A stretch of 32,000 nucleotides of DNA, from assembly GCF_000007985.2 (NCBI RefSeq), contig NC_002939.5, positions 3,782,129-3,814,128 on the forward strand. Reading direction: 5' to 3'. The position numbers were made by a program, and so were the translations under genes. This document shows, in pieces, positions 6,626-24,157 of the stretch (position 1 is its first letter; the number at the start of each line of letters is the position of its first letter). The stretch is from Geobacter sulfurreducens PCA. GTDB taxonomy: Bacteria; Desulfobacterota; Desulfuromonadia; Geobacterales; Geobacteraceae. The notes below the pieces were generated by a model that saw nothing but the letters and a program-made list of their open reading frames with translations, ran no database searches and was not told the origin of the DNA.

Positions 6626-9000
6626 CTGTCCAAATCCGCCAGCACGAAGTCAATGGACCCGATGATGGCCAGAAAATCCGCCACGAGCCACCCCCGGCTC
6701 ATGAGGGGGAGGGCCTGGATGTGCGGGAAGCTCGGCGTCTTGATCCGCACCCGGTACGGCACGTTGAGGCCGTCGCTCACCACGAAGTAGCCGTTCTCCC
6801 CCTTGGGCGCTTCGATGGCGCTATAGTTCTCCCCCTTCGGCGGCGCCATTCCCCGTGTGGCATTGATGAAATGGTGAATCAGGGATTCGATGTCGTGGAG
6901 GGCGTCCCGCTTCTTGGGCAGCACGTAACGGTAGTCATCGGTGATCCAGCGCCCGGCCGGCATCTCCTTCCAGCACTGGCGGACGATGTGGAGCGACTGG
7001 CGGATCTCCTCGATCCGGACCCGATAGCGGGCCCAGCAATCCCCCCCCTCCTCGGTCGGAACCTCGAAGTGGAAGTGCTGGTAGCCGTTATAGGGGATCT
7101 TTTTCCGCAGGTCCCATTCCACGCCGCAGGCCCGCAGGTTCGGGCCGGTGATTCCCCACTCCAGGGCCTCGTCCCCGGTGATGACGCCCACCCCTTTCAG
7201 CCGCTCCCGGAAAATGGGGTTCCCCTTCAGGAGATCCTCGTACTCCTTGAGCCGGCCCGGCATCCAGTCAAGGAACGCCTTCACCGCCCCGTCCCACCCC
7301 TCGGGGAGATCGTCGGCCACGCCGCCGATCCGGAACCAGGAGGGGTGCATCCGGCCACCGGTGACCATCTCCACAATGTCGAAGATCTTCTCCCGGTCGG
7401 TGAACGTGTAGAAGACTGGGGTCATGGCCCCCACGTCGGCGGCAAAGGTGCCGAGCCAGACCAGATGGTTGGCGATCCGGAAGAGCTCAGCCAGCATGAC
7501 CCGGATGGCGATGCCCCGGTCCGGCACGGTGATGCCGCAGAGCCGCTCCACGCTGTTCACGTAGGCCAGGTTGTTCTGGACCCCGGCCAGGTAGTCGATC
7601 CGGTCGGTGTAGGGGATGAACTGGTTCCAGTGCTGGCGCTCGCCGATCTTCTCGGCACCCCGGTGGTGGTAGCCGATGTCGGTATCCATGTCCACGATCT
7701 CTTCGCCGTCCAGCTTGAGGACGAAGCGGATGATGCCGTGAGTGCCGGGGTGCTGGGGCCCCAGGTTCAGGATCAGTGTTTCTTCGTCAATTCTATCGAA
7801 GAAATCAGAGGCAGGCAGGGCCTGATGGCGCCGGGCGTCGTCCGTGGTGTAGGGATGCATCTCCGTTGCCCGGAAGGGGTGATTTTTCCGCAGCGGGTGC
7901 CCCTCCCAGTCGGGTGGCATGAGGATGCGGCGCAGGTTCGGGTGGCCGGCGAACTGGATGCCGTACATGTCGAAGGCCTCCCGCTCGTACCAGTCGGCCG
8001 CCGGGAAGACGCTTGTCGCGCTCGGGATCTCCGGCGTATCCCCTCGCAACTCGGCCTTGATCCGCAGATGTCCGGGGATGTGGAAGTTCAGTAGGTGGTA
8101 ATTGACGGTGAAGTCCGGGAACCGCGACCGCTCCCGGCGGCACGACTCATCCACGCAGGCCACGTCCTCCAGACGCCGGAAAGGAGCGGCGCTCCGGGTT
8201 TTCAGGTGGCGCAGCACGTCCGGCAGCAGCTCCGGCGGGCAGCGGTAGGTGAGCATGTCGGTAGCGTGATCGTCCCGCACCACCCGGTGGCCGAAGGCCG
8301 TTTCCAGTTCGCCGGCAAGACCGAAGTCGGGGAACTGGTGCTTTGGGGCCGGCGGGCGCCACATCTCGTCCGAGCGGGGCATTGGGAAATGGGGGTGCTG
8401 CACCGAAGTCCCCCTGATGGCGATCCCCTCCATGCCGGGTCCCCGGGTGTCGCGGGACTTGGTCACCCCGTCCACCAGCACCGGCCGGGTGGTTCCCTCG
8501 CTCCCGCCGGCCAAGTGGAGGACCTTCCTGGCGGGGCGTTCTTCCCTCCTGATTTTTTCCTGGAGCAGCATCAGCCCCTGGAGGAATGCCTCGGGGCGCG
8601 GGGGACAGCCGGGGACGTGGACATCCACCGGGATGATCTGGTTCACCCCCTGGACCACGCTGTAGACGTCATACATGCCGCCGGAGTTGGCGCAACTCCC
8701 CATGGAGATGACCCACTTGGGCTCGGCCATCTGCTCGTAGAGCCGGAGGATTGACGGGGCCATCTTCTTGAAGACCGTGCCGGCGATGACCATGAGGTCC
8801 GCCTCCCGGGGGGTGCCCCGGAGCACCTCGGCCCCGAAGCGGGAAACGTCGTAGCGGGAGGTGAAGGAGGTCATCATCTCGACGAAACAGCAGGAGAGCC
8901 CGAAGAACATGGGCCAGAGGGAATTGGCCCGGCCCCAGTTGATCAGGTCGTCCAGGCTGGCCAGAATGATGTTGTTCTGTGGGACCTCAGTCTCGGACAT
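6622..9000 (-). CDS. nuoBCD: Fused NADH-quinone oxidoreductase subunits B, C and D in one polypeptide (792 aa)
   Basis: NuoB part: [35 protein letters not shown]. Linker of about 60 aa. NuoC part: [31 protein letters not shown]. NuoD part: [26 protein letters not shown] ... [12 protein letters not shown] prefer ATG 9000 (GGAGGGG upstream) over the track start at 9015. Confidence 0.93.
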
Positions 9001-9415
9001 GGCCCCTCCGTGCACGGGACGGTCCCCAGTCGAGGCCCCCCTTCAGCCAGAGCCAGACGAGGCCGAGAAGGAGGATAACGATGAAGAAGGTGATATGGAC
9101 GAGCCCTTGAAGGCCCAGTTCGCGCCAGGCCGTGGCCCAGGCGAAGATAAAGGCCGCCTCCACGTCGAAGACGATGAAGAAGATGGCAATGAGGTAGAAC
9201 GGGACCGGATAGGCGAGCCGGGCCGAACCGGTGGGGATTGCGCCCGATTCGTAGGGGAGTTCCTTGTTGCGGTTCGTGGTCTTGGCGCCGAGCCACCAGG
9301 CAGCCAGGAGAAGCACGCCGATCAGAATGGATGCCGCAAGGGTGTAGAGCGCCAGGGGAAGGAACTCGGGCGGCAACGAGGGGAAGAGGGAATGTGAAAT
9401 GCCGGCTGGTTGCAT
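8987..9415 (-). CDS. nuoA: NADH-quinone oxidoreductase subunit A
   Basis: 142 aa, three TM segments. Conserved [49 protein letters not shown] lies upstream of ATG 9415. 14-nt overlap with nuoBCD. Confidence 0.9.
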
Positions 9416-9453: not shown

Positions 9454-9481
9454 ACTCTAGCGCAATCGGGACTCATGTCAA
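9454..9481 (-). promoter_or_regulatory. Candidate sigma-70 promoter for the nuo cluster
   Basis: Minus strand reads TTGACA (9481..9476), 16-nt spacer, TAGAGT (9459..9454). It sits about 40 nt upstream of the nuoA ATG in the 99-bp gap after the thioredoxin gene. Confidence 0.45.
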
Positions 9482-9514: not shown

Positions 9515-9967
9515 TTAGCGCAGGGCATCGCGGACCCGGGAAAGCACCGCCTCTCTGGGTAGTGCACCGCTCCAGGTTGCGAGCACCTGCCCCCGTCGCA
9601 GGAGCACCAGGGCCGGAATCCCCCGGATGCCGAAGCGGGCTGCCAGCTGCGGGTTCTCCTGGGTGTTCACCTGAACCACTGCCGCCGTGCCGGCAAGCTC
9701 CCGCGCAACCTCCCGCACCACCGGTGCGAAGTCCCGGCAGTGGGGTCACCAGGGGGCCCAGAATTCAACCAGAACGGGGCCATGATAGCCAGCGACGAAC
9801 GGGTCGAAACTCCGGTCGGTAAGCGGGACCGGCTGGAAATAGAGGGGCGGGAGCACACCGCGGCAGCTGCCGCAGCGGCCCGCAACCCCTTCCCTGGATG
9901 CCGGCACCCGGTTGCTCGTGCCACAGGCGGGGCAGGCAACGAGAAATGACTGGCCGCTCTCTGCCAT
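9515..9967 (-). CDS. Trx2-type (N-terminal zinc-finger) thioredoxin with in-frame TGA at the first active-site Cys: predicted selenoprotein, motif W-U-P-H-C
   Basis: Track ORFs 9746..9967 and 9515..9721 share one frame and are separated by TGA (9748..9746). Joined product: MAESGQSFLVACPACGTSNRVPASREGVAGRCGSCRGVL...VLVEFWAPW-[TGA]-PHCRDFAPVVREVARELAGTAAVVQVNTQENPQLAARFGIRGIPALVLL... It is collinear with E. coli Trx2 (DFWAPWCGPCRNFAP...RFGIRSIPT). Confidence 0.8.
9707..9733 (-). promoter_or_regulatory. Candidate bacterial SECIS hairpin downstream of the thioredoxin UGA
   Basis: Minus-strand RNA forms GCACC-GGU-GGUGC (9727..9715), extendable by C-G and two U-G pairs (CUUC with GGG). The core stem starts 18 nt after the UGA, and the GGU apical loop begins at the 24th nt after it. 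Confidence 0.55.
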
Positions 9968-9976
9968 GGGAGGTTC

Positions 9977-10444
9977 CTACCCCTGCTTGGCGAGGAACTC
10001 CGCCACCTGCGCCGGATGGGCCTCTGCCTTGGCCACCTTGGACCAGTGCTTCACCACCGTCCCGTCGGGACCCACCACCACTGTGGAGCGGATCGTGCCC
10101 ATAGTAGTCTTGCCGTACTGGACCTTCTCGCCGAAGGCACCGTAGGCGGTCATCATGGCGGCGTCCGGATCCGACAGAAGCGTGAAGGGGAGGCCGAAGG
10201 CCTTGATGAACTTATCGTGGGACGCGAGGCTGTCTTTGCTGACGCCGAGAAGAACAACGCCGCGCGCCATCAGATCCTGGTGCAGATCCCGGAAGCCGCA
10301 GGCCTCCTTGGTGCATCCCGGAGTATTGTCCCGGGGATAGAAATAGATGACGACCGTTTTCCCTGCATAGTCTTTCAGGGAGTGTTTTTTCCCGTCACTT
10401 CCCTCCAGGGTGAAGTCGGGAGCTTTTTTGCCTTCCAGCGACAT
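9977..10444 (-). CDS. bcp: Thiol peroxidase / peroxiredoxin Bcp (PrxQ type)
   Basis: MSLEGKKAPDFTLEGSDGKKHSLKDYAGKTVVIYFYPRDNTPGCTKEAC... is a typical Bcp with the PGCT active site. ATG 10444 is preceded by AAGGAGG; the track start at 10510 is an extension. Confidence 0.92.
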   Translation of the reverse strand: MSLEGKKAPDFTLEGSDGKKHSLKDYAGKTVVIYFYPRDNTPGCTKEACGFRDLHQDLMARGVVLLGVSKDSLASHDKFIKAFGLPFTLLSDPDAAMMTAYGAFGEKVQYGKTTMGTIRSTVVVGPDGTVVKHWSKVAKAEAHPAQVAEFLAKQG

Positions 10445-10506
10445 GCCTGCCTCCTTGGTGAATCGAATCCGACAGGAAAAACAGTTTACCCCATTCCCGG
10501 TCGTTG

Positions 10507-11718
10507 TCACCCCTGCCCATTCAGGAGCGCGGCCACCTCCTCGGCGTAAACCATTTCCTCATCGGTGGGAATCACGTAGACCGCAACAGGCGAGTCATCG
10601 GCGCTGACCCGCTCCTCCCGGTCCACGGAACGGGCAGTTCGGTTCCGCTCCCGGTCGAGCCGGATGCCGAAGCATGCCATGTCGGCGAGGGCCTTTTCCC
10701 GCACGAGCCATTCCCCCTCCCCCGAGGCCGCGCTGAAGACCACGGCGTCGAGCCGGCCGAGGGCCGCGGCGTAGCCGCCGATGTGCTTCCGGAGTCGGTA
10801 GGCCTCCATCTCCAGAGCCAGGAGGCACCGCTCATCCCCCGCGATGGCCCGGGCCAGAAACGCCGACCGGTCCAGCTTGAGGCCGGTGATGCCCGCGGCA
10901 CCGCTCCGCTGGTTGAGAATCCGGTCCAGATCACGGGGCGAGAGCTGTTCTTCCTGCATCATGAACGGGGGAATGCCCGGGTCGATGGAGCCGCAACGGG
11001 TTCCCATCATGGTCCCTTCCAGCGGCGTGAGACCCATGCTCGTATCAATGGAGCACCCTCCCTCCACGGCGCAAAGGGAAATCCCATTGCCGATGTGGAT
11101 GGTGACCAGATTACAGAGGGCCGGCTCGCGCCCCAGGAGCGCCGCCCCCCGCCGCGCCGCATGACAATGGGAGGCGCCGTGGAAGCCGTAGCGTCTCACG
11201 CCGTGCTGCTCGTACCACTCCCAGGGGAGAGGGTAGAGGTAGGCATGGAGCGGCATTGCCTGGTGGAATGCCGTGTCGAAGACTGCCACGTGGGGAATGC
11301 CGGGCAGAGTAGCCATGGCTCCCTCGATCCCCGCCAGGTTCGGGGGAATATGGAGCGGCGCCAGTTCCTCCACGGATCTGACCGCCTCGATGACCTTCCC
11401 GTCGATGGGAACCGAGGAGGTAAACCGCTCCCCCCCGTGAACGACCCGGTGCCCCACGGCGGTGATCTGCTCGACCCGGGAGAGGGGACCCTCCAGGGGG
11501 TGGGTCAGGGTGGCGAGAATAAGGGCCACGGCTGCACCGAAACTGGAGCAGTCAGACTCCAGGTGATAGGGGTCCCGCCCCGGTACCTCCATAGAGATGA
11601 ACGAGTCGCCCAGCTCGATCCGGTCCACGTCCCCCCGGGCGAGGACGGTCCGCGTAGACCAGTCGAAGAGCTGGAAGTGGATGGAAAAGCCCCGGCAATT
11701 GAGAATCAGGATAATCAT
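10507..11718 (-). CDS. Acetate/propionate kinase family paralog with a divergent N-terminal phosphate motif
   Basis: ASKHA motifs are retained: VGHRVVHGG, PLHIPPN, AVFDTAFHQAMP, RYGFHGASH, IHIGNGISL, GTRCGSIDPG, VIPTDEEMV. The N-terminal NxGSSSxK motif reads LNCRGFSIHF. Start taken at ATG 11718 (MIILILNC). Confidence 0.8.
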   Translation of the reverse strand: MIILILNCRGFSIHFQLFDWSTRTVLARGDVDRIELGDSFISMEVPGRDPYHLESDCSSFGAAVALILATLTHPLEGPLSRVEQITAVGHRVVHGGERFTSSVPIDGKVIEAVRSVEELAPLHIPPNLAGIEGAMATLPGIPHVAVFDTAFHQAMPLHAYLYPLPWEWYEQHGVRRYGFHGASHCHAARRGAALLGREPALCNLVTIHIGNGISLCAVEGGCSIDTSMGLTPLEGTMMGTRCGSIDPGIPPFMMQEEQLSPRDLDRILNQRSGAAGITGLKLDRSAFLARAIAGDERCLLALEMEAYRLRKHIGGYAAALGRLDAVVFSAASGEGEWLVREKALADMACFGIRLDRERNRTARSVDREERVSADDSPVAVYVIPTDEEMVYAEEVAALLNGQG

Positions 11719-21760: not shown

Positions 21761-22318
21761 TCAGAGGGAAACCGGTGTGATTGAGCGCACCGAGATCTCC
21801 ACGTTCAGCTCCTTCCTGATTTCTTCGAGCATGGCCGACACCTGGTCCACCGAGATCCCCTCCGGCAGCGCGGCCTCGATCATCATCACATAGACCGGTT
21901 CACCTTTTTTCCCTACCAACTTTGTGTTGAGGTCGGTGATATTGATGCTGCGCTCGGCCAGCTCCTTGGTCACCCGGTAGACGATGCCCGGCTTGTCCGA
22001 CCCGTAGACCGACAGCATGCAGATTTCCCCTTCGGGGGCGCGGTACTCGGCCTCGTCGGGGGTCATTGTACGGGCGGAGACGGTGAGGCCCATATCCTCG
22101 CCAAGCACCCGGAATTCTTCGAGCAGCCTGCTCTTGGTGAACGGCTTGGGGTGGGAGATGATGAGGATCATGGCGAACTCCCCTCCCAGCATGGTGGAGC
22201 TGGAGTCCTCGATGTTGCAGCCGAGTCGGTAGAGAATGCCGGTAGTCCCGGCGACGATGCCGGGCCGGTCCTTGCCGACGACGGAAAGGGCGAAGTGGAC
22301 AACTGAATCCTTGGTCAT
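21761..22318 (-). CDS. Tandem ACT-domain protein (GcvR-like)
   Basis: Two ACT repeats: VVGKDRPGIVAGTTGILYRLGCNIEDSS and VYGSDKPGIVYRVTKELAERSINITDLN. ATG 22318 is preceded by GGGAGG. Confidence 0.85.
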   Translation of the reverse strand: MTKDSVVHFALSVVGKDRPGIVAGTTGILYRLGCNIEDSSSTMLGGEFAMILIISHPKPFTKSRLLEEFRVLGEDMGLTVSARTMTPDEAEYRAPEGEICMLSVYGSDKPGIVYRVTKELAERSINITDLNTKLVGKKGEPVYVMMIEAALPEGISVDQVSAMLEEIRKELNVEISVRSITPVSL

Positions 22319-22374
22319 GGTGTGCCTCCCGGGGTCGATGCCCGGCAAAAGTGTCTGCCGATTTGGTTCATTAA

Positions 22375-22403
22375 TCTATAGCAGATGCGGGAGGCCATGG
22401 CAA
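22375..22403 (-). promoter_or_regulatory. Candidate sigma-70 promoter for the ACT-def-permease operon
   Basis: Minus strand reads TTGCCA (22403..22398), 17-nt spacer, TATAGA (22380..22375). It sits about 57 nt upstream of ATG 22318. Confidence 0.45.
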
Positions 22404-22409
22404 GACCGG

Positions 22410-22712
22410 CTACCCGAGCCCCAGCCGCTCCCGGGCCGTCTCCACGAGGCAGTCGAAGACCATCTCGCGGCTTTCGATGAAGCGTGGCATGTCCTGGTGC
22501 ATGATGTCTTCGAGCAGGTTAAGGACCCGGCCATCGCTGGAGCCCAGTTCGTTCATCACCGCTTCCATCATCGCCACAACTTCATAGAGGTCGTCCCGGT
22601 TGAAGGGGGACGGATCGGGCTTGCACCGGAACTTGGGCTGGTCGCGGTTGACCACGTCCTTGGGATATTTGTAAAAGAGGTCAGACGCCTTGAGCTTTAC
22701 CGGCATGGCCAT
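22410..22712 (-). CDS. Hypothetical 100-aa soluble protein
   Basis: MAMPVKLKASDLFYKYPKDVVNRDQPKFRCKPDPSPFNRDDLYEVVAMMEAVMNEL... High GC3 and GGAAGGAG upstream of ATG 22712. No family recognised. Confidence 0.6.
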   Translation of the reverse strand: MAMPVKLKASDLFYKYPKDVVNRDQPKFRCKPDPSPFNRDDLYEVVAMMEAVMNELGSSDGRVLNLLEDIMHQDMPRFIESREMVFDCLVETARERLGLG

Positions 22713-22760
22713 TGTTCTCCTTCCGCTTTGATCAATCCCGCGCGCACCACTGGCCACCGC

Positions 22761-23768
22761 TCAAGTGACGCAGACGAAATCCTCTCCCTCACGCAAGCCC
22801 GCCCTGCGGGCCCAGGCCCGAACTCCATCCCGCGCCCCCCGGGTTCCCACGGTAACGAGGATCTTTTCAGCGCCCGCCCTGACGTCATCCGGTGCCGTCA
22901 CCGGCGCCCCGTGGAGGATTCGACCCTGTTTCCGCGGGTCCACGTCGAGCCATCGGCCCACCCGCACCCCCTCCCGCGCCAGGGCTCGTTGCCACGCCCT
23001 CCCCTCCAGCCCGGCCCCGGCCAGGGTGACGTTGTCCACACCCAGCAGGAACCCCTGACACAGGTGATGGATCTTGCAGGCGCGGAAGGCATCGGCGGCA
23101 TATTCCCCCATGGTGCGGGTCGCGCGCTCGGGGCGCTCCCGCCAGAAGAACAGCACCTCCGGCAGCCGCGTGAACCTGACCCCCCCGGCTGCAAGCCTCA
23201 GCCAGAGGTCGTAATCTTCTGCCCATCCGGTCTTCCGGTAGCCTCCGGCATCTGTCAGAGCCTGCCGGCGAGCCATGACACTCGGGTGGACGACCGGCGA
23301 CTCCACAAAGCGGTCACGCATGATTTCCTCGTGAGTCAGCAGGCCGTTTTGCCACTCTTCATAGGCACGCATGCCGAGTCCCACCGAGTGTCGGGGAAAG
23401 TGGCGAAACCGGGTGGCCACGAGTCCCAGGCCGGGATCCGCGTCAAGGGCAGCGGCCTGGCGTTCCAGCCTCTGCGGGTGGGATATGTCGTCACCGTCCA
23501 TGCGGGCCACGAGTTCCGCACGGCAGTGGGCGAGGCCGTAATTCAGGGCATCTACCAGTCCCGCGCCCGCGTTGTTGAACACCCTCACCCGCCGGTCTCG
23601 GGCCGCGGCCACGCGCAACAGCTCCGGCGTGTCGTCGGTGGAGCCGTCGTCCACGACAATGAGTTCCCATGCCGTCAGGGACTGCCGGCACAGGGAGGCC
23701 AGGGCAGCGGGCAGGAAGCGCTCTTCGTTGCGGACCGGCATGAGAATCGACACGCGGGGTGCGCTCAC
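22761..23768 (-). CDS. Family 2 glycosyltransferase with an extra C-terminal Rossmann-like domain
   Basis: VSILMPVRNEERFLPAALASLCRQSLTAWELIVVDDGSTDDT...DGDD. The GTG start overlaps the thioesterase stop (GTGA). Confidence 0.85.
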   Translation of the reverse strand: MSAPRVSILMPVRNEERFLPAALASLCRQSLTAWELIVVDDGSTDDTPELLRVAAARDRRVRVFNNAGAGLVDALNYGLAHCRAELVARMDGDDISHPQRLERQAAALDADPGLGLVATRFRHFPRHSVGLGMRAYEEWQNGLLTHEEIMRDRFVESPVVHPSVMARRQALTDAGGYRKTGWAEDYDLWLRLAAGGVRFTRLPEVLFFWRERPERATRTMGEYAADAFRACKIHHLCQGFLLGVDNVTLAGAGLEGRAWQRALAREGVRVGRWLDVDPRKQGRILHGAPVTAPDDVRAGAEKILVTVGTRGARDGVRAWARRAGLREGEDFVCVT

Positions 23769-24157
23769 GGCATCTCCGGCATCAAGGCTTGGATCAGCTC
23801 GGCGGGGAGACGTTTGGGCTTCATCCCCGGCCCGACGCAGACGAGGGTCACCTTGCCCCCAACCAGCAGCTTGCCGTCCAGGCAGCGCACCACCTGCTGT
23901 CCCACGGTAAATGAGGTTTTGCCCACCTCAAGCACCTCGGTCTCAACCCGGACAAGATCGTCCAGCACTGCCGGGGCACGAAAGTCGATCTCCATCCGCA
24001 CGACCGGAAAAATGCAGCCTCGGTCGGCCAGCTCCCGGACCGAAAGTCCGCGTTCCCGCAGGAACTCGCATCGTCCCCGCTCGAAAAAGCCCAGGTAGCG
24101 CGCATGATAGACTACGCCGCCGGCGTCGGTGTCCTCATAGTAGATACGGAATTCCAC
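23765..24157 (-). CDS. YbgC/4HBT-family acyl-CoA thioesterase
   Basis: EFRIYYEDTDAGGVVYHARYLGFFERGRCEFLRERG is a hotdog-fold signature. GTG 24157 is preceded by GAGGAG. Confidence 0.88.
   Translation of the reverse strand: MEFRIYYEDTDAGGVVYHARYLGFFERGRCEFLRERGLSVRELADRGCIFPVVRMEIDFRAPAVLDDLVRVETEVLEVGKTSFTVGQQVVRCLDGKLLVGGKVTLVCVGPGMKPKRLPAELIQALMPEMP

Follow-up and report, generated by a model that had tools for sequence, protein, structure and literature searches.

Introduction

The thioredoxin gene GSU3446 of Geobacter sulfurreducens has close described counterparts, and it is itself among the described selenoproteins. Zhang, Romero, Salinas and Gladyshev (2006, Genome Biol 7:R94; PMC1794560) give the identical 150-aa sequence, with selenocysteine (Sec) at position 74 (U74), in Additional file 4, where the orthologs of G. 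metallireducens and G. uraniumreducens also carry U-P-H-C. The same survey reports eight selenoproteins in G. sulfurreducens, including thioredoxin, SelD and FdhA, and its sequence file for SelA, SelB, SelD and YbbB holds four G. sulfurreducens entries (PMC1794560). Fujita et al. (2007, BMC Bioinformatics 8:225; PMC1914089) enter GSU3446 in Table 1 as 'Thioredoxin, TGA', a known selenoprotein. The initial annotation of this DNA had said that the selenoprotein class is not new, and this is right also for the specific gene: GSU3446 was published as a selenoprotein in 2006-2007, and its recognition here is a rediscovery. Experimental proof of Sec in GSU3446 was not found in the searchable literature, and the published support that we located is all computational.

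Here we analyzed GSU3446 within a stretch of 32,000 nucleotides of G. sulfurreducens PCA (contig NC_002939.5, positions 3,782,129 to 3,814,128), which we call the window and whose first nucleotide is position 1. We conclude, with a probability of about 0.93, that the UGA at 9748..9746 is the Sec codon of a Trx2-type thioredoxin, GSU3446, and that it is accompanied by a SECIS hairpin.

Results

GSU3446 is a single frame with one internal TGA

We found a single frame of 150 codons on the minus strand (9967..9515), in which the TGA at 9748..9746 is the sole internal stop. The ORFs 9746..9967 and 9515..9721 share this frame and are split by the TGA alone; the initial annotation had read them in this way, and retranslation agrees. 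The peptide before the TGA is ...GPVLVEFWAPW, and the peptide after it is PHCRDFAPVVREVARELAG. With Cys put at the stop, the read-through product matches the Pfam families Thioredoxin (PF00085, E = 6e-27, 94.1 bits, residues 47-145) and Zn_ribbon_Thio2 (PF21352, 28.7 bits against a cutoff of 27.1), and these two matches bear out the call of a zinc-finger thioredoxin. The four Cys residues of the zinc ribbon are kept across GSU3446 orthologs. The TGA had also been placed at the first active-site Cys, and homologs do hold Cys in the aligned column. The features of the locus are collected in Table 1.

Table 1. Features of the GSU3446 locus and its neighbors, in window coordinates.
Feature	Position	Strand	Details
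GSU3446, complete selenoprotein gene, 150 aa including Sec74	9515..9967	-	ATG 9967..9965, TAA 9517..9515
N-terminal zinc ribbon, C12-x2-C15 ... C32-x2-C35	9863..9934	-	PF21352, residues 11-36
UGA codon, Sec residue 74, at the N-terminal nucleophilic Cys position of CxxC	9746..9748	-	Ortholog column is TGA or TGC/TGT
Resolving Cys77 (TGC) of U-P-H-C	9737..9739	-	Invariant in all homologs
SECIS hairpin	9712..9730	-	Codons F80-A-P-V-V-R-E86; covariation
Hairpin, 5' arm	9730..9723	-	UUCGCACC
Hairpin, loop	9722..9720	-	GGU
Hairpin, 3' arm	9719..9712	-	GGUGCGGG
bcp peroxiredoxin GSU3447, 155 aa, Cys-type	9977..10444	-	AhpC-TSA, E = 1e-40 (Pfam)
Promoter-like site GTGACA-16-TAAACT, upstream of bcp	10483..10510	-	Consensus match only; 2 found vs 0.1 expected
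Promoter-like site TTGACA-16-TAGAGT, within the 99 nt that separate GSU3446 from nuoA	9454..9481	-	10/12 consensus matches
nuoA	8987..9415		Downstream of the thioredoxin gene
Fused NuoB/C/D subunit, 797 aa	6622..9015	-	NF009808, 1633 bits

Other TGA codons inside long open frames were sought across the whole window, and of the 70 matches all but the thioredoxin codon lie in non-coding frames. The window contains no further candidate for a selenoprotein. It also has no tRNA or tRNA-Sec (ARAGORN), and there are no sel genes among its annotated genes. On the question of Sec machinery elsewhere in the genome, the answer comes from the literature, in which G. sulfurreducens is catalogued as Sec-decoding (PMC1794560).

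The TGA is conserved in strains and relatives

An exact-protein match of the HemE encoded in the window points to G. sulfurreducens. Over 21 kb, the window matches one assembly of this species without a mismatch and differs from CP002031.1 (about 3.69-3.71 Mb) by 3 mismatches, and the strain-level differences at the locus range from 0 to 51 mismatches in 21 kb. All three matching assemblies that were translated (L201, L203, L204) have the TGA, and the check for a sequencing error gave TGA, not TGC or TGT, in independent assemblies and strains.

Among GTDB species-representative genomes, we found 11 Geobacteraceae orthologs with 57-66% protein identity. Eight of the 11 have TGA in the exact column with conserved flanks (Geotalea toluenoxydans, Geobacter sp. 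AOG1, Geomobilimonas luticola, Geotalea sp. SG265 and four MAGs), and the other three have TGC or TGT. WAPW-TGA-PHC occurs in at least 120 metagenome contigs; about 100 among the matches listed are Zn-ribbon Trx2 genes, in which both flanks of the TGA are open and conserved over about 75 codons. The alignment of orthologs called for in the initial annotation gave a column of TGA or Cys between conserved flanks, and decay on both sides of the codon was not seen.

These results bear on whether the TGA arose by nonsense mutation or by miscalling of TGC or TGT, so that the gene would be dead or would really encode Cys. Such a reading fits the behavior of gene callers, which split the locus into 73 + 68 aa, and the label 'hypothetical protein' that the N-terminal half carries in strain YM18. 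Against it, the same TGA is present in independent assemblies and strains, on 170 contigs, in eight other Geobacteraceae species and on about 100 metagenome contigs, both of its flanks are under clear purifying selection in TGA carriers, and a covarying hairpin (below) is found only in TGA forms. The comparative data effectively refute a pseudogene or a sequencing error, to which we give next to no probability.

A second alternative is that the UGA truly terminates translation, which would yield a 73-aa zinc-ribbon peptide, with a separate 68-aa piece initiated at the GTG at 9721. Each piece can be called as an ORF, and at the UGA of any bacterial selenoprotein partial termination by competing RF2 is expected. 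Neither piece, however, would hold a complete CxxC site, and the codons for PHCRDFAPV between the TGA and the GTG would go untranslated, yet they are kept as protein and their Cys77 is invariant. Moreover, the Cys-form relatives are single 145-aa proteins. On these grounds we reject the two-peptide reading as extremely improbable, and we retain decoding of the UGA as Sec.

Public annotations differ in how they treat the codon. The initial annotation had predicted that the locus would be mis-annotated, and this holds in part. A single 150-aa product is called in two NCBI records, but automated calls on Logan assemblies give the split 73 + 68 aa (with the 73-aa fragment on 170 contigs), GenBank strain YM18 has the fragments BBA71867.1 ('hypothetical protein', N-terminal half) and BBA71866.1 ('Thioredoxin'), and JGI/IMG names its fragments 'thioredoxin 2'.

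A covarying hairpin follows the UGA

A hairpin with the core GCACC-GGU-GGUGC at 9727..9715, 18 nt past the TGA and extendable by a C-G and two G-U pairs, had been proposed as a bacterial SECIS. We found the core present exactly so; with the C-G and the two U-G pairs, the stem has 8 bp and begins 15 nt past the UGA. The fold of the single sequence (9690..9760), in DNA rich in GC, is no better than that of shuffles (z = 0.23); therefore, the decision rests on comparative data.

For this comparison, 95 distinct Sec-form sequences were aligned without gaps, and they had been picked by a 23-nt pattern across the TGA with nothing downstream. Pairing was found in 99.3% of stem cells over the 95 sequences (columns 22-29 with 33-40), all eight positions are paired in 90 of the 95 Sec forms, and control helices slid along the alignment were 37-62% paired. 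Compensatory double-sided changes occur in 5 of the 8 stem pairs, with 37 double-change cells observed against 8.5 ± 2.3 in shuffled alignments; none of 500 shuffles reached 37. RNAalifold independently yields the same helix. The covariation is hence in precisely the hairpin that had been proposed as the SECIS. A rival minimum-free-energy hairpin in 9690..9760, CACUGCCGG/CCGGUGGUG, was also considered and rejected: its pairing (76%) equals that of shuffles, and its top three pairs are broken in 50-82 of the 95 sequences.

The pair types of the covarying positions (n = 95) were CG/UA in 77/18 sequences, CG/AU in 89/6, AU/GU/GC in 86/8/1, UA/UG/AU in 61/31/2 and UA/UG/CG in 48/33/10. In codon terms, TTC...CGR becomes TTT/CTT...CAR (C-G to U-A) in 18 sequences, and at the pair that closes the loop 6 sequences have CAG.GTT in place of CCG.GTG (A-U for C-G). 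Two further compensations are GCA...GTG to GCG...GCG, for which G-U intermediates are present, and TTC...CGA to TAC...CGT (U-A to A-U). Several of the compensatory changes are non-synonymous (Arg to Gln, Pro to Gln, Val to Ala), and therefore the RNA structure constrains the protein sequence. In the apical loop, 93 of the 95 sequences read GGU or GGC, and the other 2 read GUC.

Cys-form genes provide the comparison with which the hairpin can be judged. In 73 more distant Cys-form thioredoxin genes, about 2.5 of the 8 positions are paired. Nine close Cys-form genes with CPHC (L005, L009, L010, L205-L210) pair at 4-8 of 8 positions (mean 5.7), with the loops CGC, TGC, AAC, GAC and GGC. Part of the stem complementarity comes from the conserved peptide F-A-P-x-V-R, whose codons are partly self-complementary, and is seen in some Cys forms too; the Sec forms bring it to completion. 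Codon choice in the stem departs from that elsewhere in the same Sec ORFs: the Pro codon CCG is used in 100% of cases in the stem vs 51% elsewhere, the Val codon GTG in 95% vs 36%, and the Ala codons GCC/GCT in 0% vs 53%. In these alignments, the synonymous sites in the stem are locked, and full pairing together with a GGY loop is specific to TGA forms.

The same data address a third alternative, in which the hairpin would not be a SECIS and would instead be a by-product of F-A-P-x-V-R or some other RNA element, with the UGA read by a near-cognate Trp or Cys tRNA or by another route. The pairing of 4-8 positions in the close CPHC genes speaks for it, as does the outcome of the covariance-model check suggested in the initial annotation, which came back empty: Rfam gave no match at the gathering threshold over the whole window, the hairpin included, and neither a SECIS nor any other family of relevance at E ≤ 10 in 9600..9850. 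On the other side, a fully paired stem, a GGY loop and locked synonymous codons mark the TGA forms specifically, and compensation proceeds even where it alters the protein (CGG to CAA with TTC to TTT; CCG.GTG to CAG.GTT). In addition, G. sulfurreducens has the Sec machinery and other selenoproteins, and the position of the hairpin and its loop G fit the bacterial SECIS model of bSECISearch (PMC1794560). We consider a hairpin that is not a SECIS to be very unlikely, and we treat the hairpin as the SECIS of GSU3446 below. Its 3-nt apical loop is small for SelB binding, and the closing pair, though itself covarying, may open in vivo.

Two of the close Cys forms, L010 (C-T-H-C) and L206, are paired at 8/8 positions, with the non-GG loops UGC and AAC. 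The partial hairpins in Cys forms could be a proto-SECIS that eases conversion of Cys to Sec. Alternatively, they could be remnants left after Sec-to-Cys reversion, as described by Zhang et al. (2006, Figure 4; PMC1794560).

GSU3446 is the Sec version of a CPHC subfamily

In a collection of 5.8 billion proteins, the closest full-length proteins are 145-aa Zn-ribbon thioredoxins with about 60% identity. Nearly all of the best 57 matches have the active site C-P-H-C (C-S-H-C or C-A-H-C is rare), and classical C-G-P-C Trx2 proteins appear only lower in the match list, below the C-P-H-C relatives. The initial annotation had called U-P-H-C an unusual motif, and this does not stand: C-P-H-C is standard in this Trx2 subfamily, and U-P-H-C is its norm. 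Every Sec form found has U-P-H-C, which is in part a consequence of a search pattern that demands PHC. Since the nearest relatives have C-P-H-C, U-P-H-C represents the Sec variant within a defined Trx2-like subfamily with CPHC.

The product scores below the cutoffs of the NCBIfam TrxC equivalog NF008229 (112.7 bits, cutoff 125) and of TIGR01068 (86.9 bits, cutoff 96.8). Because of the NF008229 score, GSU3446 is placed outside TrxC proper, and its thioredoxin belongs to a distinct, paralogous Trx2-like subfamily with CPHC or UPHC.

Gene neighborhood

The literature lists GSU3447 as a peroxiredoxin and describes GSU3429-GSU3445 as the adjacent complex I cluster, and the gene order in the window agrees, with GSU3447 upstream and GSU3429-3445 downstream of GSU3446. 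The other genes of the window are nuoA, nuoBCD, nuoE, nuoG, ackA, hemE, an ahbD-like radical SAM gene, def, rsmG, mnmG, mnmE and yidC. Fusion of NuoB, NuoC and NuoD is a known trait of this type of complex I. Long ORFs without a family match, such as 22236..24098 on the plus strand, overlap real genes on the opposite strand or in another frame. They are typical shadow ORFs of GC-rich DNA, not genes, and they are absent from the genes called at the matching G. sulfurreducens loci.

The thioredoxin gene had been described as lying 9 nt behind a Cys-type Bcp, and the coordinates agree: the bcp stop is at 9979..9977, and the ATG of the thioredoxin gene (9967) follows 9 nt further on. No terminator-like site was seen between the two genes, and they are probably co-transcribed. 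The promoter-like site upstream of bcp is a candidate promoter for this bcp-trx transcript, and the site at 9454..9481 suggests that the nuo operon may have its own promoter.

Bcp had further been named as a natural client of the thioredoxin. In G. sulfurreducens it is a plausible client, but among Sec orthologs bcp adjoins the thioredoxin gene in just half of the genomic set (4 of 8) and in 8 of 64 from metagenomes; therefore, the arrangement is local, and we reject Bcp as a universal partner of the family. For nuoA, we found that it lies directly downstream in 8 of 8 genomic and 20 of 63 metagenomic Sec orthologs and in none of the nine close Cys-form loci. We regard as improbable a functional link, in addition to that with Bcp, between the Sec thioredoxin and the proteobacterial-type complex I (GSU3429-3445), which the protein might protect or redox-regulate; inherited gene order within Geobacteraceae more likely explains why nuoA is adjacent.

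Other TGA-containing families

The metagenome contigs also include a second family with WFWAPW-TGA-PHC, made of longer proteins that extend about 100 aa past the TGA and have no Zn ribbon (L101, L116, L118, L119, L125, L132, L134, L143, L145, L159, L163-L165, L198). By sequence, these look like secreted thiol:disulfide oxidoreductases of the TlpA/ResA type. Many members have a small hairpin, CUGC-GGUC-GCAG, at the same offset and over the codons A-P-A-V-A, and L134 and L142 have the apparent compensatory variant CCAC-GGUC-GUGG. The GGUC loop of this hairpin resembles the loop of E. coli fdhF. The second family probably belongs to the published 'thiol:disulfide interchange / Prx-like' selenoprotein families.

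A third metagenomic group (L121, L186, L192) is Trx1-like, lacks the Zn ribbon and reads DFWAPW-TGA-PHCKK, and its predicted hairpin is longer and lies further downstream (GUUCGAGCUUAGACGAGCUGG).

Among the TGA read-through candidates that were still unknown to Fujita et al. (2007; PMC1914089) is a multiheme cytochrome c encoded outside the window in G. sulfurreducens (GSU2937+GSU2936). It may be related to a selenoenzyme, also a multiheme cytochrome c, that has been described as essential for sulfur respiration (2026; PMC13510729).

Discussion

Following the E. coli model (PMC1794560), the complex of SelB, GTP and Sec-tRNA(Sec) would bind the hairpin and deliver Sec to UGA-74, which would then be decoded as Sec rather than terminating translation. 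The product would have 150 aa, in which a four-Cys zinc ribbon at the N-terminus precedes a thioredoxin fold bearing the active site U74-P-H-C77. By analogy with thioredoxin chemistry, Sec74 would be the nucleophile that attacks a disulfide or sulfenate of the substrate, and reduction of the substrate would leave a selenenylsulfide between Sec74 and Cys77. Thioredoxin reductase presumably recycles the protein, and Bcp (GSU3447) would be one likely client in G. sulfurreducens.

With the gene already published, the additions made here are modest: a SECIS consensus with statistical support, evidence that environmental Geobacteraceae-like genomes commonly carry the Sec form, and a record of split annotations that persist. 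Split or 'hypothetical protein' annotations remain in public data in YM18, in JGI/IMG and in automated calls on hundreds of contigs. The consensus from 95 sequences, UUCGCACC-GGY-GGUGCGRR at 15 nt past the UGA, is usable as a family-specific SECIS model for the repair of such annotations, and it is useful because Rfam has none. The case also shows that raw sequence alone was enough for the initial annotation to recognize a genuine Sec codon together with its SECIS.

Compared with known systems, GSU3446 is closest to its Geobacteraceae orthologs, including those of G. metallireducens and G. uraniumreducens, with which it shares the Zn ribbon, the Trx fold and FWAPW-U-PHC; in the Sec-thioredoxin orthologs of this family the SECIS hairpin is at the same offset. 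The likeness to Trx2/TrxC of the E. coli type lies in the two domains, a four-Cys zinc ribbon at the N-terminus and then a thioredoxin fold, and the solved Trx2 relatives 1v98, 7d6l, 3p2a, 7ysi and 2ppt are full-length matches (E = 9e-31 to 2e-23). The active site differs, with W-C-G-P-C in Trx2/TrxC and U-P-H-C in GSU3446. Judged from thioredoxin folds in general, a P-H dipeptide may give a higher redox potential than that of CGPC. DsbA (C-P-H-C) shares the P-H dipeptide between its redox residues with GSU3446, but DsbA acts as an oxidase in the periplasm and has a helical domain inserted in its fold, whereas GSU3446 is a cytoplasmic-type Zn-ribbon thioredoxin with no evident signal peptide, and the Pfam DSBA match to its product is negligible (E = 0.007, under the cutoff). 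The SECIS of the E. coli fdhF type is likewise a stem-loop that lies in the coding region immediately downstream of the UGA and carries G-G-U/C at its apex. Its sequence, however, is unrelated, and in GSU3446 the 8 bp of the stem run without interruption, there is no bulged U, and the GGY loop has 3 nt.
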